A stretch of 64,000 nucleotides of DNA from NCBI GenBank assembly GCA_022813865.1, contig JALDZX010000065.1:1-64000 (forward strand), in the 5' to 3' direction. Under the pieces are notes generated by a model. That model searched no databases. It saw only the letters and a list, made by a program, of their open reading frames with translations, and was not told the DNA's origin. The DNA comes from Xylographa opegraphella (lineage: Eukaryota). This document shows positions 18,233 to 55,525 of the stretch, piece after piece. Every line of letters begins with the position of its first letter. Position 1 is the stretch's first letter. Both the position numbers and the translations under genes were made by a program.

Positions 18233-18273
18233 NNNNNNNNNNNNNNNNNNNNNNNNNNNAAAAAAAAAAAAAA
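18233..18273. other. Assembly gap (27 N) followed by a poly-A run
   Basis: N run 18233-18259, then A run to ~18273. Confidence 0.98.
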
Positions 18274-30316: not shown

Positions 30317-31498
30317 TTACTGGTGGCGGGTTGCAAACGAAAGACGGCGCTTCAAATGCTTCATACAAGGCGGATGGTGCATGCATTCATCGCGACGTAT
30401 GAAGCATGAGTTCCGCTGGACATTGATGTTCCCCGGCTCCACTGTGAAGTGTCTCTAGTTGCAGCATGTCCAATTGCCACAAAGATGGCTTAGGTGCCAG
30501 CCATTGTTGACGAATCCGCTTCTCTGAGTTTTTGTCAAGAAATTTTTCACAACCAACGCAACTACTCCGAAATTGACTGACGAAGAATGGGACGAGTTTT
30601 GATCTTTCCAGCGGAAGTTACGACGGATTGATCCGTAAGCTCGGCCTATCTGTCTACTTGGCGGAGGAGGCTTTGGATGTAGCCAGCATTCTGCATGTGA
30701 TCGTCCTGAATCGAGGATCTTGTAGATCTCAGAAATCCATTTTGTCATCGCTCGGACCAAGGCTGTCGTCCGCGTTTTAATGAAAAAGCGCTTTCGATCT
30801 TTGACTGAGAGATTATCCTTAGGTACCTTTGGAACAGTCCCAACTGAATCATGCCTCCGTTCAGCAAATGAACTGACGTTACTCTGATATCGTCCGCCTG
30901 TACCTCCAGAGTCTGTATCCGTCCATAGAGAAGAGTTATAAGACAAGGTTCTCGGTGCAAATTGTCGGTTGGTGCTCTGTTTTGCGGTTTTGGAGATATG
31001 GGCTCCTGTGATCCCACGCCTTGCAATCCTAGGCTCTATGTCGTCATTCTGGCCAATAAGCTTGGTCGTTGCTCTGCATACGATTGGAGGGGTCAGAATC
31101 TGCTCAACGGCATTTGCTGTGACGGAGCACTTCCTTGCATTTGATGAACTTTCGTCTTCGGTCAATACAGGTTTGTGCGTTGATGTTCTTTTGGGCCGAA
31201 GTGGCCGGAGAACCAGGGAAGCAATACCACCCTCATCATCGCCAAGAATTATAAGAGGACGAGATGTTTCAGGAATCAAGGTGAGTCGCCCACATCTACG
31301 TTTCCCAGTAGTATAACTAGTGGAGTCCTCTTCTGGTGAGCGTTTCTTTCCTCTGGGAAGGGCTTCGGCGGATACTTCCCGAGTCGGAAGCTGGGAAACT
31401 TCCCTGAATGCACCATGCGCCTGCCCAAGCTTCGGCGGGTTCAGACGACAATTATAGCCACAAATAAACGTCCCTGAATGACTGCATTGAGTGAGCAT
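30317..31498 (-). pseudogene. His-Cys box / His-Me finger (zinc-binding loop of homing endonuclease) protein with an in-frame TAG inside the motif
   Basis: ECWL...GWHLSHLCGNWTCCN*RHFTVEPGNINVQRNSCF..ECMHHPPCM. The motif continues in frame past TAG 30455-30457 to TAA 30317-30319. Confidence 0.7.
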
Positions 31499-33207: not shown

Positions 33208-36135
33208 ATGAATAACGAGACCTCTGAACCGACCACTGGTGATGATGGAACATCTCACCTCCCTCTAGGAGTCCCGTCACTTCCGTCATTTGTTCATTCA
33301 CCGGGTTATCAACGTGTTCCTTCCTTGAGGACGACGGAGATGTCAAACATGAGTAATCCACGGATTTCCAGGCGTGGAGAGGCTTATAATACTCATGATA
33401 CGACCGACAGTTCTACTCACGGACTAGCGATCTCGAGCCTCAATTCTGCATCGGACAAGTCCATATCAAGAGTGCCCAGCGAAAGCAAGTCTTTTATTAA
33501 GCCGTTAATCTCGGTCGGTTCACTATCCGAAACACATGATTTACGTGATATAGATCTTCATGACAATAGCGGTCTCCATAATATTTACGAGCCTAGTCGA
33601 AGTCCATCTTTTATTTCATCTATACATGATGAAATTTGTGAAGCAGTGCCGGACACGGAGAGGCTGCATCCAACCACGCCTGCCACTACCTCAAGCTCTT
33701 GCGATCAACAACGGCCAGGTCCTTCCTTTAGGTGTAGGTCGAAAAAAGACATCAGACGTAAGCGTTGGCACTGGCTATCGATCTCGATTATTATACTCGC
33801 TATCTACTCCACTACCTTATCCGCCGTATGGTTAGTGGTGGCAGCTCTCAAGCACCGTTATGGAGGATTTATCAATACCGCTACCGGCAGATTGAGCCCG
33901 ATCAATGCTTCGACACTCACCGCTGCAGTCGCAAAAACTATCGAGTTGTCCTTTGTGACCGTCTTCGTTGCTTTCATAGGCCAAGTTCTCAGCCGGCGTG
34001 CCCTTATGGTCCGATCGAAAGGAATCACGATCGCAGAAATGTGAACACGCCACTGGGTCACCCAACCAGGAATGGTGCTCACTAACTTGGACAGCGTGAA
34101 ATATGCAGGCAACACTCCACTTGGCATCCTAAGCTTAGTAGCCGTTATCATTGCTGTGCTGTATACCACTGCTTCAGATACATTAGGTGAGCCGTTTTTC
34201 TTGACATCCTTGCAGCTCATTTCCTTCAGTGGCAACTTCGACGAGGCTTTAAGCCGAGTATCCCGCGATTCTGTCAACCAGCAGTCTGCGTGAATTGTCT
34301 TGCACCTCTATGTTCACAGGGGACAAGATACCCAGATGGCCCGTGGACACTCCTATTCTGGCCAATCGAGTCAACCTAACTTAGCCATTAGATGCTCCGA
34401 AGCTCAAGCTTGGAAGATTCGAGGACCGTATGCTCTATGGTCGTGTAGCAACTTCATTTGCAAACGCAAGTTATACGGAAGGAAGCTGCCAAACACCTAT
34501 CACCAAAGCCATCGATCCCAATCATAGTGCCGAATCATGTATAGAGATACAATACTCTGGGCAAGCGTGAGGTTCTAAGAGATCTGAAGTACCATAAGCC
34601 TGCGCTTACCGATTTCCTTAGTTTCCACAATTTGAACTAGTACTTAGGAGCTTGGGTAACTGCGGCTGGCAGTAGCAACATATCTACCGACCTTCGACAT
34701 CGACCACTTCCAATGGCAATGCTTTACGATAACACTACCGTTCAAGGTAGCTGGATCAGTACCACTCGGACTATGAGAGACGTCAGTGAAAAGTATGGGA
34801 GGATAGTCAACAACGTGAGTATGGCTATGCCGCATTCCGGGGTGTTCGGCGCTTCTCAACTTCCGAAGAATGGCATTTTACAGCCCCAGGACTTCAGCGT
34901 AAGTGCTGACTATACTTTGATTTATCGAACTAACATTTCCACAGGGCCTTGGCCAATTTTTCATCAGTGCAAGTGTGCCCTCTCCTGCAGTCAATGTCCT
35001 CTGTGCGGGCATGTCAAGAGCAGAAATTGCTCCACTGATTTACGAAACATGGCCAGGAGCTGAAACCCATCCTTTCAACGCTTCGTCCTGGCCCCTAGGC
35101 TATGATCTTCCTGCAGCTCCAGACTGGGTCAACTCTACTGCAGTTGATGATTTTTTTGAGTTTGGCGAGAGATACAGCAGGCAAGCCCCAATCTTTCCAA
35201 GGTTTCCTAAGGGATACAATACCATTCTTAACACGACTCTGGAGTATGTTGATGCCCTATACGTTCTTGCGGCATCGTCTTCGGATAACTATATGTTGTG
35301 CTCGTTATCAGTCTCACTGACTCCAAGTTGCTCGACATCGTACAATTCGAGCATATCCGGGGGTTTTATGTCGTCTCGCTGTGAAGATCCTAGCGACCCA
35401 TTTGCTTACTCCAAAACTCAACCAACGGCAACCGATGGCTTCCGAGTCAAGGACTGGGTTGCATCAGCTTTCTATTGGGCCGTCACGGTCGACCTTAATG
35501 GAGGTATCAGCGACAGCGACGATTCCGTTGCGCGGCTACTGACACAATTGATGCCCACTACATACAGTCTTAATCCGACTCTGCCATCGATAGCGGAGGC
35601 CTTGGCCGTCATGGTCGGACCTACGCTCCTGACCGGTTCCCTAGATTCTCCCTTTGTTCATTTCTTCAACTACACGGCGGAAGACGACGTGTTTCATCAC
35701 CTCGTGTTCCAACAATTTCCCGCGTCCCTGGCTTACCAGGATTATGCTTCCGGAGGCAACCAAGCATGGCAAGGCGTCTTCTACATCGTGCTCGCATTGG
35801 CCTTCGTGCTGAACCTGCTGTGCTTGGGCTACTTCATCTGGTACAGCGATCTGGTCAACGACTTCACGGAGCCGCAGAACCTCTTTGCCTTGGCGATCAA
35901 TTCACCCCAAAGCGAGCAGCTCGCTGGCAGCTGTGGGGGAGGTCCCGAAGGGGAAGACCTGCGTGCGACGTGGTTCATCGACGTGAAGAACGAACACTGC
36001 TTCATTAAGGATGGCAACTTGGAGGACGAACCGTTCCTCGGGAGCGAGTATTCGCACGCGGAGTTCACGTACCAAGATAGCCCGATTTCGAGGTCGCACT
36101 CGAAGTTGTCGAGACAATGAAACAGCATACTTTGA
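33208..36135 (+). pseudogene. Pezizomycotina multi-pass membrane protein gene with in-frame stop codons
   Basis: AKTIELSFVTVFVAFIGQVLSRRA, GITIAEM*TRHWVTQPG, YSGQAFHNLN*YLGAW, LYDNTTVQGSWI, NNVSMAMPHSGV, PSIAEALAV and DFTEPQNLFALAINSP. Introns 34187-34391, 34567-34621 and ~34899-34944 are intact. Stops at 34042-34044 and 34638-34640. Confidence 0.75.
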
Positions 36136-39749: not shown

Positions 39750-39955
39750 TTTGCCAGACGAGTCATGAATGTATTTCTTCCCAGGATTGTGATTGGCTTG
39801 AACAGAATCAACACGCAGGCACACGCAGCGCGTTTTGACTAGGTATTACGTCATTTGCTGACTCCAGGCTTGACGATTTGCCTCAGTTCCAGGCAATTGA
39901 TGACTGATTTGTTATGAAGCTCTAGTAATAATGTACAACATATACCTGAATTACA

Positions 39956-40702
39956 ATGTCACTGGACGCAAGAAAGCGCAGACTGCTGACAGATTTTTTC
40001 CTTCCAACTTCCAAAGCCACCCGGACCGAGTCTGCGGGACCATCAGAGCAAGCGGTTCCTGGTCTGTCACTTTATCCCAATTTTATCAGTCGAGATGAAG
40101 AGACAGGCATACTTGAATTTCTGAATAGTGAGCTTTGCACATGGCGCACAGATCTCAGTCGAAAGACCATGCACTTCGGTGGTGAATACTGTCTCATGCC
40201 ACCAAGGCTATCTAGCACAGGAGTGCACGAGAAAGTTCCCACGGCCAACACTGCATCTGCTCTCAAGCCGCACGTCATACAGGCTCCACCTATGCCTCAG
40301 GAATTCGACTGGTTGATTCAACGAATGACAGACCGGGGTCTGTATCCACAAGATCGGTGGCCGCAGTATTGCATAGTTAACCACTACGATGGAGACCAGG
40401 GTATTTCTTCCCATACGGAGAACTTTTCCTTTGCTCAACCAGTCGTTGGCTTATCTCTTTTAAGTCCGTGTGCCATGCGCTTCCATGAGCTCGTTACTCC
40501 CGATAGTGGATCTGTCAGATCCGGCAAGGCCCAGAAAGCGCGCAGGACGGGAAGGCATGTGGATATAAGGTTACCAGGTAGAAGCTTGGTTGTCATGAAC
40601 GATGACGCTAGGTGGAAGTGGCAACATGAGATTATAAGGAGCAGAAAAGGAAGAGGTGCTGGCTGGGAGAGGGTTAGTCTAACATTCAGGTTGAGGTTGT
40701 GA
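39956..40702 (+). CDS. AlkB-family 2OG-Fe(II) dioxygenase
   Basis: PGLSLYPNFISRDEE, QYCIVNHY..GISSHTE (HxE), VVGLSL, LPGRSLVVM..ARWKWQHEI and RVSLTFR. Confidence 0.88.
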   Translation: MSLDARKRRLLTDFFLPTSKATRTESAGPSEQAVPGLSLYPNFISRDEETGILEFLNSELCTWRTDLSRKTMHFGGEYCLMPPRLSSTGVHEKVPTANTASALKPHVIQAPPMPQEFDWLIQRMTDRGLYPQDRWPQYCIVNHYDGDQGISSHTENFSFAQPVVGLSLLSPCAMRFHELVTPDSGSVRSGKAQKARRTGRHVDIRLPGRSLVVMNDDARWKWQHEIIRSRKGRGAGWERVSLTFRLRL

Positions 40703-41636: not shown

Positions 41637-44181
41637 ATGAGTGTCGTGGGGGTTGATTTGGGTACCTTGAACACCGTCATCGCAGTCGCTCGGAATCGAG
41701 GTGTCGATGTGGTGAGTGTCTACCTTCGATGCAATGCTTCGTTTATGAACGCTGACCATGTCCTAGATCACAAATGAAGTTTCGAATCGTGCGACACCGT
41801 AGGGCACCCGATGAGTATATGTTTGCTCCAGAAACTAACTCTCACCCAGTTCCCTCGTAGGCTTTGGGCCTAAAAGCAGATACCTAGGCGAGCCAGCAAA
41901 GACACAAGAGATATCCAACCTTAAGAACACCGTTGGATCCTTGAAACGACTGGCCGGCCGCTCCCTGGATGACCCAGATATACAAATCGAGAAAGACTAC
42001 GTATCATGCAACCTGATCGACACCAATGGCCAAGTCGGGGCGGAGGTGTCGTACCTAGGCAAGAAAGAGACATTCACTGCGACTCAGTTAGTCTCCATGT
42101 TCCTGAACAAGATCAAAGCCACCGCTTCCGCTGAGCTCAAGCTACCTGTTTCCGATATGGTTATGAGTGTTCCGCCGTGGTTTACCGATCGTCAGCGGAG
42201 GAGCCTGGTGGACGCTGCAGAAATTGCGGGATTGAAGCTCCTCAGGTTGATCAACGACACCACAGCAACTGCGCTTGGCTATGGTATTACAAAGCTCGAT
42301 TTGCCGACAGCAGAGGAGAAGCCAAGGCGTGTATGTTTTGTCGACATTGGTCACAGTACCTACTCGTGCTCGATTGTAGAATTCAAGAAGGGCGAATTGG
42401 CTGTCAAATCTACAACATACGACAGACATTTTGGCGGTCGAAATTTTGACAAGGCGCTGGTCGACCACTTTGCGAAAGAGTTCAAGGAAAAATACAAAAT
42501 CGATATTCACACAAACCCCAAGGCAGTCGTGAGAGTCGCAGCAGCTGCGGAGAAGATGAAGAAGATTCTGTCAGCGAACGCGCAAGCTCCGTTGAGCATT
42601 GAGTCGCTAATGAACGATGTCGATGTCTCTGCCATGATGAAACGTGATGAGCTCGAGGAATTGATCAAGCCATTACTCGACCGCGTCACGGTCCCTTTGG
42701 AACAGGCGTTGGCCGAGGCGAAGCTAAAGGTAGAAGACATTGATGCAATCGAAATGGTTGGTGGATGCACCCGTGTTCCATCTTTGAAGGAGCGAATCAG
42801 CAAGTTCTTTGGCAAGACTCTTTCTTTCACCTTGAACCAAGATGAAGCTGTAGCACGAGGTTGTGCCTTCAGCTGCGCGATACTCTCTCCTGTCTTCCGT
42901 GTACGGGACTTCTCGATTCACGACATAGTCAATTACCCGATCGAGTTCAATTGGGAGCAGTCCCCAGATATACCCGATGAGGATACGAGCTTGACAGTCT
43001 TTAACAAGGGTAACGTCATGCCCTCGACCAAGATACTTACTTTCTATCGCAAACAGCCATTTGATCTAGAGGCCCGATATGCTAAAGCGGACATGCTACC
43101 CGGCAAGATGAGCCCTTGGATAGGTCGCTTTTCCGTCAAAGGTGTCAAAGCAGATGCAAAGGATGATTTCATGACCTGCAAGCTCAAAGCTCGTCTCAAT
43201 CTTCACGGAATTCTCAACGTCGAGTCGGGTTACTACATTGAAGATGTGGAAGTGGAAGAACCTATTCCCGAAGAGAAGGAGAGTGAGAAGAATGAAGGTG
43301 ATAAAAAGGAAGGCGATGTACGTTGCAATCTATCTTCTCATGCATCCCCTAACACTGAGGCTGAGGACGTCCTCGCCTCCGCTCCACGTTCGAAGTTGAG
43401 AACCATGTTTCATAACGTTCGCGCCGGCATGAAGCGAAAGCCTTCTACCTCTCCCAATTCAGAACTAACACTTCGACGTGATCAGGCAATGGAGACAGAC
43501 CCTTCGAGCACCGAGCAGAAGCCCAAGACCCGCAAAGTCAAGAAGCAAGTCCGCAAAGGCGACCTTCCTATTGTGCAGGGAACCTCGTCGCTCGATCAAT
43601 CAATCAAAGACGCCGCGGCAGAACGCGAAGGCACTATGTTTATGGAAGATAAGCTTGTGATGGACACAGAAGACAAAAAGAACGAATTGGAGGGTTACAT
43701 CTACGAGCTACGTGGCAAGATCGATGAGCAATATGCCGAGTTCGCGAACGAGGAAGAGAAGGAAAAGCTGAAAGCCAAACTTGAACAAGCAGAAGTAAGC
43801 TTCCCAACTGTCCCCTTCGTTAGTTCTAAGTGCAGTAAAGGTTTCTAACCTGCTCTATTACAGGATTGGCTCTATGACGAGGGCGATGACGCGACCAAGG
43901 CCGTCTACATCGCGAAGATGGACGAGATTCGCTTCGTGGCCGGTCCGATCGTTGCACGTTACCTTGACAAGCTCGAGGAGGAGCGGCAGATCGTGCTAAA
44001 GGCGCAGGAAGAGAAGGCGGCGAAGATCAAGGCTGAATCGGAGGCTAAGAAGAAGGCGGAAGAGGAGGCGAAGAAAGCGGCGGAACCAAAGAACGAAGCG
44101 GAGGCGCCGGCCACGAATGGTGAGGACGTGGACATGAAGGATGCGGAATCGGGGAAAGTAGATGGTGAGGAGCCGAAGTAG
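41637..44181 (+). CDS. SSE1: Hsp110-family chaperone Hsp88/Sse1
   Basis: MSVVGVDLGTLNTVIAVARNRGVDV|ITNEVSNRATP, LINDTTATALGYGITK, TLNQDEAVARG and EDKKNELEGYIY..|DWLYDEGDD. Introns ~41712-41766, ~41799-41849, 43318-43485 and ~43795-43863. Confidence 0.97.
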
Positions 44182-45880
44182 ACGACCGGTGGCGGGCAGT
44201 GGGTAATGCACCAAGGTACTTGGGATTTGAAGCATGACGGACGCATAGATGGTATGGAGCGCGGATAGACCGTAAGCGGAGTGGAGCGCAGGGGCTTTGT
44301 CTGCTGGCTGCTCGGCTATTTATGGCGGTGGGATGTGAGCAAGAGACGTACGTATTACGATAGATCAAAATAAATCAATGAATGCAAGCGATATGAACTT
44401 CAGAACTACTCCCCGATTCGGACCGATTCGGGATTGGAAGTTTGACGATTGGATTGTGTAAGTGATCACTTGTTGCTTTGCGGCTTGAAAGGGACAGCTC
44501 TCCATTCACGAATCTGAGTACGTTGCCTCCAATGGCGATCAGAGTATGCTTTGAGGAAGTGGTCGTCAAGGCTACAAGCTTCCCTGACACCTCGCGCCCT
44601 CAGTCGTGCACACGAGTTTCTCGAGCAGCAGTGCCAAAAATATCTCTAGAAAAGGTCGCCCTGCAAATCAGTAGGAGATATCAGAAGCACTGAGGGCTTA
44701 TGGTTTCCACAATGTATAAATACCACCTCCTTCATACAACACTTCTCTGCCGTGTGCCGAACGGAGTCTATGAGCTGTCCGGGTCTGGGACAATAACCCC
44801 TTGCCTGCGAAACAACCACTTCTCGCACGAGAGGACTCTATTTCTGCGCTCCTTATGAGATGGGCGAGTGTAGAGCTCCTGACGTGGTCAAGACTTTGCA
44901 AGATAACACTTCATATGCTGGTCGTTTTCTGGAATGACTTGCGAAGAACGACCCTTCCCACGATCGATATACCGCTCAAAGAAGTGTTCAGTCCCTTTCA
45001 TCGAGATGCGTATCGATCAGAGCCACTTCTACGCGATTCTTTATAGCTAGGTGGATATATCAGACGCTTGGAGAAGCATCAGTCGACGGCTCTGCCCAGA
45101 ATTGGTAGTTATAGCGGACCATACCGGTCAATAGTGATAAGTGTTGACGTACCGGTGTCGAGCGATACGATCCGTTCCCAGAGGGCTTCCAAATGGAAGC
45201 TGTACTGCTCGAGTCCAGGAGATATAGATCCTCGATCGGTGACCCACCGCTTGAACATGTCTCGATATAGTATTACACAACCCACGGTAGTTGAGAAGAT
45301 GGACTTCCATCCCTGTCTAGGAAAGTCTCGAAAAGAGGCCTTTTCAATGATGTGATACTATTCGAAACGGACGGCCGTCAACTCTACAATGGCGACAGAC
45401 GCCAAAGATCAGTAGGAGCGGCGCAACGAACAGGTACGCTGGCTAGGCCCGAGCAGCGATACTAGCAGGTGTTCAAAATCCTGATTACTAAGACAATGGT
45501 TAAGATGATGACAATAAAACGATGGCGCTCACTACCCAGTGAATAAAGAAACAAAAGTAAGCAAAAAAATCGGTCGAAAGTACAGGAGGCCTTGAGAGCT
45601 TCTCGGGTGCTTTGGATCGCCCAAAGGCGCAGATGAGACTGCTGACTTGACATAGCGAGCGGACAATCAGTCAACATCATATCAATGTGATCATATCTTT
45701 GCATCAAGACATCGATGATACTATATACACGAGAAACATGTCCTGGCTTCGAAACCTGACGTTGTCAAACCACAGCAGATTGTCGAGCACGAAAATACAG
45801 TGTCATAATTCTTCACTCAGGCCATGAATGATTCCGATTGAATAGGTCCCACGCTAGTGCAAAATGCTGACAATAGCTAT

Positions 45881-45886
45881 TATAAA
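45881..45886 (+). promoter_or_regulatory. TATA element ~30-35 nt upstream of tRNA-Glu
   Basis: TATAAA at -35..-30 relative to the tRNA 5' end at 45916. Confidence 0.5.
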
Positions 45887-45915
45887 TGACAATAGGGAGC
45901 AATCAATAAGAATTC

Positions 45916-46041
45916 TCCGGTATGGTGTAGGGGTTAACATCGCCCGCTTTCACCGGGCAGCCCCGGGTTCGATTCCCGGTAAATAGTTATCCCGTATTAA
46001 TTCATGAGATTTCAACTCTAACACAATTCTAGGTACCGGAA
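45916..46041 (+). tRNA. tRNA-Glu(TTC) split by a 54-nt GT-AG intron-like insert in the T-stem (exons 45916-45978 and 46033-46041)
   Basis: Acceptor stem TCCGGTA/TACCGGA+A, D-arm GTGT..ACAT, anticodon arm GCCCG-CT TTC AC-CGGGC and T-arm CCGGG-TTCGATT-CCCG|G. The joined length is 72 nt. Confidence 0.9.
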
Positions 46042-46053
46042 CTAACCAAAACC

Positions 46054-46061
46054 TTTTTTTT
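46054..46061 (+). terminator. RNA polymerase III oligo-T terminator of tRNA-Glu
   Basis: T8 run 12 nt after the discriminator base. No T4+ run occurs earlier in the gene or the insert. Confidence 0.75.
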
Positions 46062-46907
46062 CTCGATTTTTCCTGGCCTCCTTATTATATGTTTTTTTGT
46101 GGACAACCTTTTTACGTACAGATATTGAGGCTATAGACAGGAATCCAACTTCATGTCTGCGTATACGAGTAACAGAGATGACGCAGAAGATAATCTGCCC
46201 GAGATCGTAGGATAGATTCAAGGAGGACAGCCAATCTTTTTGAATACAGAAAGCTTCAGCACTTGATGTCAATGAACAGGACGAAGGATGTCGTCCTCGG
46301 CTAGAATAACATCAATGGACATGGGTATCTTGTACGAGCACTCAATACACGAATGCTTAACGTGACTCACGATCCGTAGGGCTATAGTTCCATTCGACTA
46401 CGTTACTGAATCAAACTTTTAAAATTAGCCCTTATAATTTAGCCCTCGTCTACCTGCATTTCTAGATTAAGGACGGCGTGGTTCATGAATGCTGAATAGA
46501 GACAAACAAAAGATGCACCACCGATGCGGAAATTCGCGTTGATAGAAGTGTGCTCCGCTGTGCTCTCTAAAGACGGAAATGTTCAAGTAGATGATAACGC
46601 TGTAAAGCCCATTATGATCCTGACGCCGATATGAAAACTGAACCTCTGAAGAAGCCATTCGAAATCCGACCATCCATCCATTTCTCGCCAAGCCTACCCC
46701 TGTCCTTCAAGGGCTTGCTAACCTTTCGCTTAGCAGCCATCCAAAATCCCACTAGCGCCTCCTCACACGACTCACCAACACCAACCGCCTCAAACTTCCT
46801 CCACCACAGTGTTCAAAACCAGCGACTCTGCCCTCCTAACTCTCTCGAACTCCAAACTCAAGGGCAATCGATCAAATCCATAATCGTTAACTCAACAAGT
46901 CGCAAAG

Positions 46908-47412
46908 ATGGTACGTCGCAAGCTTCAGCCGCGCACAAAATCCATGACGAATTCCACTTTCGCGCCCCTCATTTTCGATCTCCGGTCTCCGAATGATCGT
47001 TGCAAAATGCTAATGCTCTATGAATAGGTTCTCGCAGTTGATCTTCTAAACCCAACGCCTGCGGCGGAGGCTCGTAAGCACAAGCTCAAGGTACGTCTTT
47101 GTGGGAACCTTTGCCACACACACTGTACCCAGCTCGAAAAACCATCATCAAAACATCCCAAGACTCCTTTCCACTTTTCAACCTATTGCTCGGAACACAG
47201 CATCACTAACACATTCCCTCCACTTCCAGACTCTTGTACCCGCCCCCCGCTCCTTCTTCATGGACGTCAAATGCCCCGGCTGCTTCACCATCACGACCGT
47301 CTTCTCGCACGCCCAGACCGTCGTCATCTGCGCCGGCTGCTCGACCGTGCTCTGCCAACCCACCGGCGGAAAGGCGAGACTCACAGAGGGCTGCTCGTTC
47401 CGGCGAAAGTAG
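46908..47412 (+). CDS. RPS27: 40S ribosomal protein S27 (eS27)
   Basis: [84 protein letters not shown]. Introns 46911-47027 and 47091-47229. Confidence 0.98.
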
Positions 47413-48497: not shown

Positions 48498-50169
48498 TCA
48501 ATCAGCTGCCTCCGCCCATCCGCAGTTTATCCATTCCTTGGGCACATCGTCAGGCTTGCTCACACAAGCCCAACTGCAGCCTTGTTTGAGGAATGGCAAG
48601 TGTCCGTTTCCGAGCCCATCCCACCACTCCACCCAGATGGCTCGGGGCATCACAAACGACTTCAGACACTCGCTACACAGCTGCCCTCCAGCTTCTTGGA
48701 GATCCTGTGCCCATTTCAGTGTGTGCCATAGATGCGGTGCCGCGTCTTTCGGAAGTAGATGTATAATTTGACCGAAGTCAGGGCAGGCGCTACAGGCGCG
48801 CAGGGCCAGCTCGAACAGAGACGGCGTTGGTGCAGGCTTATCTGCCCAAGGTCGTGGAGTCGAGGAGTATTGTCCTCTCGCAGATGATACGTAGTTCTTT
48901 GTGACCGCGGGATTCGGACTGGAGCCACGGCACAAGCGACCAGTGATGTCGAGGTATGCTACTGACGAAGATGCCACTTGTCCACTGGTGTTCGGGAAGA
49001 AGCGGCCGTATCCTTCCGGAAGAGAAAGTCCAGGCTTTGTCGAGACAGGTGTTATGAAGGGGTTCGGATGAAAAGCCATCGATGTGAGTTTGCCACGATG
49101 AGCAAGGACCAAGATTTCCCACGGCAAGTAACGTAGGTTGTTGGCGCTCAGGTTCAGGCTCTCAAGGTTGGTGAGATTCAAGATTGAGGGTAAGATCGAA
49201 GTCAACTTGTTTTGTCGAGGACTGAGATCAACTAAATTCTGAAGTTTGTAGATCTCTCCTGGGAGATCTTCAAGATCGTTGTTTGAGATATAGAGGCTTA
49301 TGCGAGGTATCAAGGAGCGATAGGCCTCCTGACTGGGTGGGAAATAGTTGTGGTCTTGGACTGTAAGATAATGCAGCGGTTTTAGAGTTGAGTTCCATAT
49401 CTCTCCAAGTGCTCGTCCACTGTGATGAGCATTAGTGAATATCCGAGGCCAGAATGTTACCACGAAGGATGATTGCTCCGCAGAGCAGCTTCATTCACAC
49501 GTAGAATCAACATTCACATTCATTGAGTGTGAAGAATGCTTACGATAGGTCAATCACTTGACTGTCATCATCCACAAGTTCCTGCACTACACGAGCAGCC
49601 TCTTCCTGAGCAATTTCCTCATACTGCAGTCTGGGGGATGGGCTAACAGGATTGTGTAACGCTGTCCTACTGCGGCAACCGTTCGGAAACCTGCTTTCAG
49701 ACGATTCCATTGGCAGTAATCTCTTCTCGAGGTCTGCCTCGATATCCAGTTCTCCATCATCCGTAGTTTCCGTCTCATCACTACCCATCCATACTGCGCT
49801 GTCGATGTTCCTCTTAAACTCACGCTTTCTGCGGACCGGAGCTGAGCCACCACTTTGGATATAACCCACTCGGTTCTCCCACCAGGTCCCTCGATATTGT
49901 CTTTTTCTGCGATGGGAATCGTAGTTCTCAAGTCCAGGCGGCAGATCATCACTTGAAAAGATTGGGGGATCACTAGAACATGAGGGAATGTCGTCTCTTG
50001 TACGTTTGCGATCTAGTGAAGGAAATCGAGGCCGGTGAGTTATCAAGACTGGTGATGGCAGAACAGGTTCATCGCATGTGGTGATATCCTCGTCGCCCAT
50101 GTCTAACAGGTCGACAGATCTTCCAGCCGTCGTCGCGTTAGTCAAGCCAGCTCCGACGAGACCATCCAT
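48498..50169 (-). CDS. Leucine-rich repeat protein with C-terminal Cys motif
   Basis: LYISNNDLEDLPGEIYKLQNL..QNKLTSILPSILNLTNLESLNLSANNLRYLP, PSLFELALR and CSECLKSFV..W..PFLKQGCSWAC. Intron 49420-49543 joins the two ORFs in phase. Confidence 0.85.
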
Positions 50170-53604: not shown

Positions 53605-55525
53605 TCATGCCTTCCCATTCTCCACCACGCCCACCGCTCCAAGTGTGCCCCTAACGCCTCCCTTCCCACCCACTTCCCGTGCGGTGACTAGCACTCCTAA
53701 ATCACCCCCCACGTTGACCATCACTTCTACTTTACCGCCCTTCTTGATCCCCTTGACGGCCGCTTCCGCCAGGACCTTGCCGACCTTCCACACCTTTTCT
53801 CTCACCTCTTCTTCCTCGTCCTCACTGTCGTCCTCTTCGTCCTCGCTGTCTGCCTCGGCAGATTTGCCGTTCGTTTTGGACTTCGGCGAAGCTTTGGAGA
53901 CTTTGATGGCGCAGACGCCTTCGCAGACCTTGACGAGCACGTCGCCGCCTTCCCGGGGAGAGTTGAAGATAGCAGTTCGCCGGGCGGGGGCTGCGGTCTC
54001 GGCTTCCAGAATCGGCTTGAAGACGCCTTTCTCACTGTCCTCTGAGACGAGCAGGACACCGACTGCACACCGAAGGTGGGGTGTAACGGTGACCATGGGG
54101 TGGGCGGATTGCACAATATCCTCGAGGTCAAACTCCTGAATGAGGGATGCTTGAATAGCGGCCCCACGAGCGGCGAGGTCGGAAGGATTGATGGCTGTCG
54201 ACGATGTGGAGGGGGAGAGTATCGTTGTGGAATCCGGGAAGAGAGATTGAAGGTTCGATGCGATTTTCGGGGTGTGCGAGGTTCCCCCTGAGAGAATGAC
54301 TTCATCGATGTCAAGGACATCAAGATCGGCCTTCTTGATGGCACCTTCGATGAGGCGAGTGAAGCCAGCGAAAATCTTGCTGGACAAGGTCTCGTAACGG
54401 GTACGATTGATGGTGGAAGCAAAGTCTATACCCTCGTTGAGACTCTCCACACTGATTGTAGCATTGGCACTCAGGCTTAGAGCTTTCTTGGTGGCTTCGG
54501 CTTCGAGTTTGAGTTTGGCAAGGCCACGGGCGTGCTCTCGAGGATCACTCTTGTGCTTCTTCATAAATTCCTTGGAGAAATGGTCGATTAGAATCTGGTC
54601 TAGTTTGGCGCCATTGAAATCGTAATCGTGGGCTGTAGCTAGAATGCTATACATGCCTCCTCTGGAAGCGATGACGGCAATGTCTGACCTTGTGCCTCCC
54701 AGATCTGCGACCACTACAATCTTGTCTTCTATTTTCGCTTCTGATCGAGCATCGTAGGCGAGTACAGCCGCTATGGGCTCTGATATGAACTGTAGGACTT
54801 CGATACCTGCCTCCTTTGCAGCCTGATCAAGGGCATGTTTTTGTTGCTCTGTGAAGTTTGTAGGAACCGTAATGACTGCAGAATTAACCTGTTTTCCTAG
54901 AAAGTCAGATGCGGAGGAAGCTAGTCGACGGATGTGACGTGTTGTGATTTCAGAAACTGTGATAATATTTGGTGTTTCCGAATCAGTATCGTGTATGGAA
55001 AAGGCAACCGTAGAATCGTGTTTTATTGGATGAGCGGAAGGATGACATGGTGTCGGATCTATTGCGTCAAATCTGCAGTTGTAATTTAGCCAGGTTCGTC
55101 TGAAATTGTAAACATTGTATGAACTCTTTTCCTAGGAAGTCCCGGAAATATGCAACAGTGTTCTGGCTATTCCGGACTAGTTGCGCTTTTGCCTGCGTTC
55201 CGTTGAATTCTTCACCGCCAACATAAGATAATATTGACGGTATCTGACGGTCTGTTGTCCGTCGAGGTCAGTGAATGGATCCGTGCAACCGCAATGGGCA
55301 GGCATTGAGCCCCGACGCTTCACTCACCTCCCTCCTCGTTCGCTATTACAGTCGCTTTGCCCTCCTAGAATCTTGTTAGTATGTACTGTTAAAGACGCCA
55401 TATGCCGCGTGTATACGGACCAAAGATGTGTGTGCGATTGAGCTATTAGAATTCCCGAAAGAAAGCCCAATTGCATATCGCTCGGGCGGAGTAACAGTCG
55501 CTCCTTCATCGTCGTCGACACTCAT
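53605..55525 (-). CDS. SSZ1: Ribosome-associated complex Hsp70 Ssz1
   Basis: AIGLSFGNSNSSIAHT, IANEEG|DRQIPS, VADLGGTRSD..RGGMYSILATAHD and LSGGTSHTPKIA. Introns 55365-55420, 55252-55327 and 55073-55124. Confidence 0.95.

Follow-up and report, generated by a model that had tools for sequence, protein, structure and literature searches.

The locus at 45916-46061 (plus strand) of the window (i.e., the whole stretch of 64,000 nucleotides that was analyzed) raises the question of how a tRNA could be matured from a gene whose T stem is interrupted, between tRNA positions 64 and 65, by 54 nt that carry the signals of an mRNA intron. The introns of tRNA genes and those of mRNAs are treated as separate systems: the former are handled by a protein endonuclease and a ligase, the latter by the spliceosome. 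Judging from the sequence, we tentatively read the locus as an RNA polymerase III (Pol III) gene for tRNA-Glu(UUC) with a U2-type GT-AG intron at position 64/65, set in a G|GTA proto-splice-like site and putatively removed by the spliceosome. This is the reading that we prefer, at a confidence somewhat short of probable.

The host and the surroundings of the locus were established from the neighboring genes. The long exon of the upstream SSE1/Hsp110 gene (41637-44181, plus strand) is 100% identical to SSE1 of Xylographa opegraphella and 97-98% identical to the sequences of X. pallens and X. vitiligo; the host is thus a lichen-forming Lecanoromycete. The tRNA locus is intergenic, between SSE1 (ending at 44181) and RPS27 (46911-47037 and 47050-47412, plus strand; Pfam Ribosomal_S27e; E, 3.6e-28). 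The start codon of RPS27 is apparently followed by a 127-nt intron (ATG|GTACGT...), and its open reading frame (ORF) region holds at least one further intron. SSE1 has short introns at 41712-41766, 41799-41849, and 43795-43863, and its annotated protein (P0001) retains a stretch of low complexity that looks poorly conserved (VRCNLSSHASPNTEAEDV...RRDQ); an in-frame intron missing from the annotation might be hidden there. The gene that the preliminary description called SSZ1 is an Hsp70-family gene (54109-55480, minus strand; Pfam HSP70; E, 3.4e-60). An ORF with a 2OG-Fe(II) oxygenase domain (39950-40699, plus strand; AlkB-like family PF13532; E, 5e-19) and a leucine-rich-repeat ORF (48498-49487, minus strand; score below the Pfam cutoff) are ordinary neighbors. 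A weak match to the C/D-box small nucleolar RNA snoR66 (30680-30752, minus strand; score, 22.3 bits; gathering score, 43; E, 4.5) is probably due to chance.

The features of the interrupted gene are as follows.

45881-45886, plus strand: TATAAA upstream element at -35 to -30 from the tRNA start, read off the sequence, with a presumptive function only
45916-45978, plus strand: 5' exon of tRNA-Glu(UUC), 63 nt, tRNA positions 1-64 (from the sequence, Rfam, and ARAGORN)
45923-45933, plus strand: A-box-like stretch, within the 5' exon
45949-45951, plus strand: anticodon TTC, within the 5' exon
45966-45976, plus strand: B box GGTTCGATTCC, within the 5' exon
45978-45981, plus strand: GGTA direct repeat, copy 1, at the 5' junction (from the sequence and the excision registers)
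45979-46032, plus strand: insert of apparent spliceosomal-intron type, 54 nt, GTAAAT...CTAG (G+C content, 0.30; longest T run, 3)
45979-45984, plus strand: 5' site of the insert, GTAAAT
46018-46022, plus strand: branch motif of the insert, CTAAC, with the putative branch A at 46021
46030-46032, plus strand: 3' site of the insert, TAG
46032-46035, plus strand: GGTA direct repeat, copy 2, at the 3' junction (from the sequence and the excision registers)
46033-46041, plus strand: 3' exon GTACCGGAA, tRNA positions 65-72 plus the discriminator A73
46054-46061, plus strand: T8 run, the likely Pol III terminator, 12 nt 3' of the 3' exon
46067-46071 and 46092-46098, plus strand: back-up T runs (T5 and T7, respectively)

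The 3' exon (46033-46041) pairs perfectly with 45916-45922 and supplies the last base of the T stem, which completes that stem. The insert interrupts the tRNA at 64/65 (63/64 to 67/68 over the five equivalent registers described below), 27 nt past the anticodon. Both promoter boxes, which we assigned from consensus sequences rather than from tool output, lie upstream of the insert, and the terminator lies downstream of the 3' exon. When the coordinates were read again, the preliminary description of an interrupted tRNA-Glu proved accurate, as did its statements that the promoter boxes are intact and that the insert (T runs of at most 3) has no T4 run; the terminator is undisturbed as well. Two occurrences of the 9-mer TGACAATAG, 19 nt apart, flank TATAAA (45868-45895); they could reflect an upstream element present in duplicate or a tandem duplication on a small scale. 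A second CTAAC is found at the end of the 3' exon (GGAACTAACC; 46041-46047), in the 12-nt trailer ahead of the T8 run.

We compared the behavior of tRNA finders with and without the insert. ARAGORN called no tRNA in the whole 64-kb window, and enabling its options for introns and pseudogenes did not produce a call at the unspliced locus either. After the 54 nt had been deleted by coordinates (45979-46032), it called tRNA-Glu(ttc) with all stems paired. The Rfam tRNA model (RF00005) matched the interrupted gene at 37 bits (gathering score, 29), in a truncated form that covers 45921-45981 and model positions 6-65 of 71; the window held no further tRNA-like pieces at E-values up to 5. A cloverleaf, a TTC anticodon, a conserved T loop, and a terminator are found together only once the insert is removed. 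The exons (45916-45978 and 46033-46041) are those of a canonical tRNA-Glu(UUC). It had been proposed that excision restores such a tRNA and that standard finders would fail on the gene; both points were borne out. ARAGORN misses the gene, and Rfam/Infernal truncates it.

A relative of the uninterrupted form was sought through a spurious 42-amino-acid (aa) ORF that runs across the 5' body of the tRNA (45858-45983); the remaining ORFs over the insert have no start codon and were left out of the protein search. The query had no match among proteins of 23-74 aa and two matches among all cluster representatives (i.e., P0121 and P0122), neither of which qualifies as an orthologous locus. P0122 (59 aa) shares 54% identity with the query. 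P0121 (87 aa; from a Logan contig) is an ORF over an uninterrupted tRNA-Glu that reads ...RYGVGVNIARFHRAAPGSIPGTGT; it is identical over the 21 residues derived from the tRNA body, and it continues with ...PGTGT across the junction, as predicted for the insert-free form. The P0121 match, a comparison that is silent on Xylographa relatives and on other copies in the genome, therefore indicates that the exons here have kept the conserved state and that the junction as predicted corresponds to the natural one.

The junctions of the insert carry a 4-nt direct repeat. Among seven excision registers (-2 to +4), an identical product is obtained from five (-1 to +3) because GGTA is present at both junctions, and GT-AG ends occur in one of those five (45979-46032). 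The local repeat scan revealed nothing other than GGTA flanking the gene or the insert, and no flanking duplication of the whole gene. By eye, the insert ends show no terminal inverted repeat in any register (the four inverted pairs that were found join other points), and no second copy of the insert exists in the 64-kb window, where the only matches are chance ones of at most 11 nt. An origin from a repeat family or an Introner-like element was thus not supported within this window, which offers neither a second copy nor flanking repeats beyond GGTA.

To what extent the insert resembles an intron of this genome was assessed against 17 curated introns of the window. Three of these (in SSE1) were fixed by alignment to the annotated protein P0001, and two more (intron 1 of RPS27 and intron 1 of the Hsp70-like gene) were recognized without recourse to the motif filter; the other 12 bridge long open frames and were picked with a filter that favored G at +5, so the sample is biased at that position. 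The insert (54 nt) falls within the length range of the 17 introns (46-137 nt; median, 65 nt). Its branch motif (CTAAC) is of the CTRAY type that all 17 have, and the distance from the branch A to the 3' end (11 nt) equals their median (range, 9-24 nt). It ends in TAG, and 16 of the 17 end in YAG (one in AAG). The first AG downstream of the branch A (46031-46032) is also the AG at which excision restores the tRNA. The preliminary description had likened the anatomy of the insert to that of the spliceosomal introns of this genome, and the comparison upholds this for the GT-AG ends, the CTAAC 11 nt from the end, and the length.

On three counts the insert falls short of a good intron: it has A at +5, its G+C content is low, and it is flanked by a repeat. 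The 5' site of the insert (GTAAAT) agrees with the GTRNGT of the window introns at +1 to +4 and +6 and has A at +5, where G is found in all 17 introns (12 of them picked by the G-favoring filter). An unfiltered census of +5 among 108 candidates, which is dominated by noise, gave G in 37, A in 28, C in 23, and T in 20. The G+C content of the insert (0.30) is below the curated minimum (0.35; range, 0.35-0.65; median, 0.47) and below that of the local flanks (0.38-0.49). Elsewhere in the window, a 54-nt GT..CACTAAC..CAG segment with the 5' end GTGAAC lies between two long open frames (34041-34094, plus strand); if this is a true intron, as it may be, then 5' sites with A at +5 are tolerated in the genome. 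Intron 1 of the Hsp70-family gene (55365-55420, minus strand; 56 nt) has an unusual 5' site of its own, GTCCGT. Its 3' end had been said to resemble that of the insert. The resemblance is real in that 13 of 15 positions agree, but it does not extend past the splice signals; only the last 15 nt are similar, and CTAAC plus TAG explain most of that. We estimate that it is within chance, and a kinship between the two introns was rejected.

The rate at which such signals would arise by chance was estimated in two ways. Among the 127,734 segments of 54 nt on both strands of the window, 538 have GT..AG ends, 32 have in addition CTRAY at 9-24 nt from the end, and 14 have CTAAC at that distance. Two of the 127,734 additionally carry R at +3, T at +6, and YAG, and the insert is one of the two. 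When the insert itself was shuffled 2,000,000 times, the CTAAC level was attained by 92 shuffles. The five equivalent registers raise these rates fivefold at most, and even with all five allowed, a random insert is expected to match in fewer than about one case in a thousand. Because the rates are low in both the segments and the shuffles, we treat the insert as a spliceosomal-intron unit, an assignment that appears well supported. The interrupted tRNA-Glu itself is confirmed as a real observation and is no chance pattern.

Three other explanations have to be weighed against a functional spliceosomal intron. That the 54 nt form a noncanonical intron cut by the tRNA splicing endonuclease and sealed by a ligase, with GT-AG and CTAAC incidental, is very improbable. 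Excised T-arm introns are known in nucleomorph and red-algal tRNA genes according to the excerpted text of PMC4090602, but the same excerpts name noncanonical introns of eukaryotes only in nucleomorphs and Cyanidioschyzon merolae and link them to the bulge-helix-bulge (BHB) motif. At this locus, the motif is absent in all five registers, in which 0, 0, 1, 2, and 3 of the 4 central-helix pairs can form and the flanking helices are poor; this makes the endonuclease route unlikely, and the missing signal for SEN-type removal agrees with the spliceosomal reading first given to the insert. In the minimum free energy (MFE) fold of the precursor, the acceptor stem, the anticodon arm, and the T arm are kept, the insert is largely unstructured, and no BHB is seen at the junctions. 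Nor does the insert have a significant fold of its own (z, -1.6 for the whole precursor and -0.36 for its 3' part). A BHB-type intron was accordingly rejected, since two 3-nt bulges with a 4-bp helix were found neither in the five registers nor in the MFE folds. The fungal tRNA endonuclease measures the canonical 37/38 site, and a canonical SEN-type intron was rejected because it requires 37/38, whereas the insert sits at 64/65. On the endonuclease route, moreover, the splice-signal match would be a chance event of about 1 in 10,000. A self-splicing intron is excluded by the size of the insert (54 nt). An assembly artefact (i.e., a misjoined or chimeric stretch) or an unrelated insertion that resembles an intron by chance seems slightly more improbable again. 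The features were spotted after the fact at a single locus, and the assembly is a draft with one N run in the window; that sole N run (18233-18259; 27 bases; a scaffold gap), however, is about 27 kb away, the 9-nt 3' strand lies exactly 54 nt downstream with the terminator next to it, and the chance rates are on the order of 1e-4.

The serious competitor is a dead, redundant copy of tRNA-Glu(UUC), recently disrupted by the 54-nt insertion and giving a Pol III transcript without productive splicing. We consider this distinctly possible and nearly as likely as a spliced intron. The tRNA-Glu(UUC) gene is normally multicopy in fungi, so a dead copy would cost little. In that case, the inserted DNA may have been the copy of an intron, delivered by intron transposition or a rare event of reverse splicing, or filler taken up in break repair via GGTA. 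The 4-nt direct repeat at both junctions is the expected trace of a target-site duplication or of a microhomology-mediated insertion, and the weak 5' site (A at +5) and a G+C content outside the range of the 17 curated introns point the same way, as do the rejection of the locus by tRNA finders and the lack, in the literature searched, of any earlier tRNA gene with a spliceosomal intron. Direct repeats at the borders of introns and inserts have been tied to break-repair insertion, as described in the excerpted part of PMC11782384. The repeat, the weak 5' site, and the low G+C content fit a recent insertion into a redundant copy just as well as they fit an intron. The repeat taken singly fits reverse splicing at a G|GT proto-splice-like site, microhomology-mediated break repair, and a 4-bp target-site duplication equally well. 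The predicted fold also speaks against splicing, in that the +1 G of the intron is the last pair of the GC-rich T stem; precursor tRNAs fold and are processed rapidly.

Other evidence argues against a dead copy. A random insert would rarely combine GT..AG ends with CTAAC at the modal distance (the 14 segments and 92 shuffles given above), and the insert here has neither a terminal inverted repeat (by eye) nor a second copy within the window. No damage is seen in the exons, in either promoter box, or in the terminator; on the dead-copy explanation, the exons look perfect because there has been too little time for decay. An insert that arose as an intron copy would mean that the spliceosome has dealt with this RNA context once before. 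Finally, introns of this kind are taken out of Pol I and Pol III transcripts by fungal spliceosomes, according to the excerpted parts of PMC8527467 and PMC5855946.

If the gene does carry a functional spliceosomal intron, its expression could proceed as follows. Pol III would start from the intact internal A and B boxes upstream of the insert, read through the insert (T runs of at most 3), and stop at the T8 run, which would yield a precursor of about 150 nt. The spliceosome would then recognize G|GUAAAU, the UCUAAC branch site, and the first downstream AG (UAG; 11 nt from the branch A). Joining of 45978 to 46033 would regenerate the fifth T-stem pair and the 3' strand of the acceptor stem, after which RNase P cleavage, 3' trimming, and CCA addition would take place as usual, presumably giving a functional tRNA. 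The intron may have originated by reverse splicing into the tRNA transcript or by break repair or transposition via GGTA microhomology.

The closest parallels are found in other noncoding RNA genes of fungi. Splicing of the U6 intron of fission yeast has been demonstrated. The excerpted text of a review of U6 introns, which were discovered in fission yeast, describes spliceosomal introns in U6, U2, U5, and U1 snRNA genes and in rRNA genes, discusses reverse splicing, and states that the expression and splicing of intron-bearing U6 genes await experimental validation (PMC5855946). The introns of U6 (fission yeast and other fungi) and of U1, U2, and U5 (Rhodotorula hasegawae) are, like the insert, short GT-AG elements with a branch site in a structured noncoding RNA gene, and U6 genes are transcribed by Pol III, as the tRNA-Glu gene would be here; reverse splicing is the proposed origin of the snRNA introns, and many of the insertions are species specific (PMC5855946, in excerpt). 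Unlike a tRNA, snRNAs reside in or near the spliceosome, which gives them a ready route for reverse splicing.

Lichen fungi provide a second parallel. Lichen ribosomal DNA (rDNA) carries ectopic spliceosomal introns that are removed by the fungus, and yeast correctly removed one lichen rDNA intron from Pol I transcripts, as reported by Armaleo and colleagues (PMC8527467, in excerpt). The rDNA introns of lichen ascomycetes (Bhattacharya et al. 2000, cited in the excerpted parts of PMC8527467 and PMC5855946) share with the insert the fungal group and a structured, stable RNA outside the Pol II system. They differ in that their host is a Pol I-transcribed rRNA and their removal has been shown, whereas the present case concerns one locus of a Pol III tRNA, with putative removal of the insert. 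In its excerpted text, the U6 review (PMC5855946) does not include tRNA among the host genes of ectopic spliceosomal introns. Likewise, no report of a spliceosomal intron in any tRNA gene was found in the literature searched, outside whose reach most subscription journals lie; the sole phrase match was "non-spliceosomal tRNA introns."

The known introns of tRNA genes are less similar. Canonical SEN introns, like the insert, interrupt nuclear tRNA genes and have to be removed before the tRNA can function, but they sit at 37/38 between the A and B boxes, whereas the insert is at 64/65, downstream of the B box. Unlike them, the insert has no anticodon-intron pairing and carries mRNA-type splice signals. 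We know of no BHB-dependent noncanonical tRNA introns in fungi. The BHB introns of archaea, C. merolae, and nucleomorphs resemble the insert in lying outside 37/38, with T-arm cases among them, and in being missed by tRNA finders; they depend, however, on a BHB, which the insert does not have, and those of nucleomorphs are 3-24 nt long and lack GT-AG and branch signals (PMC4090602, in excerpt). Disrupted tRNA pseudogenes are like this locus in being broken by foreign DNA with a short direct repeat and in being rejected by finders. The insert differs from theirs in its exact intron boundaries, in a branch site at the modal distance, and in exons without decay.

In a lineage that has had its rRNA genes colonized by such introns, this may be the first case of a tRNA gene with a spliceosomal intron, the spliceosome maturing a Pol III tRNA; judged from the sequence, we regard that as possible rather than probable. 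If the spliced reading is right, the locus would represent a new host class of a known phenomenon, in the lineage where it is most developed. Even as a dead copy, the locus would capture, as a dated event, the arrival of an intron-like unit in a noncoding gene. The gene sets of tRNAs in lichen fungi may be undercounted, since ARAGORN overlooks this member and Infernal reports it in truncated form, and a spliced intron here would point to a hidden class of interrupted tRNA genes that evades every standard tRNA finder. A spliceosome-dependent tRNA would link the splicing systems of tRNA and mRNA, and it would add the most abundant class of Pol III products to the noncoding hosts of ectopic spliceosomal introns (i.e., the U1, U2, U5, and U6 snRNAs and lichen rRNA). 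It would also provide a compact natural substrate for the action of the spliceosome without Pol II coupling or a cap, as well as one for the study of intron gain, by reverse splicing versus break repair at GGTA. If so, abundant structured RNAs would generally be targets of intron gain in lichen fungi.
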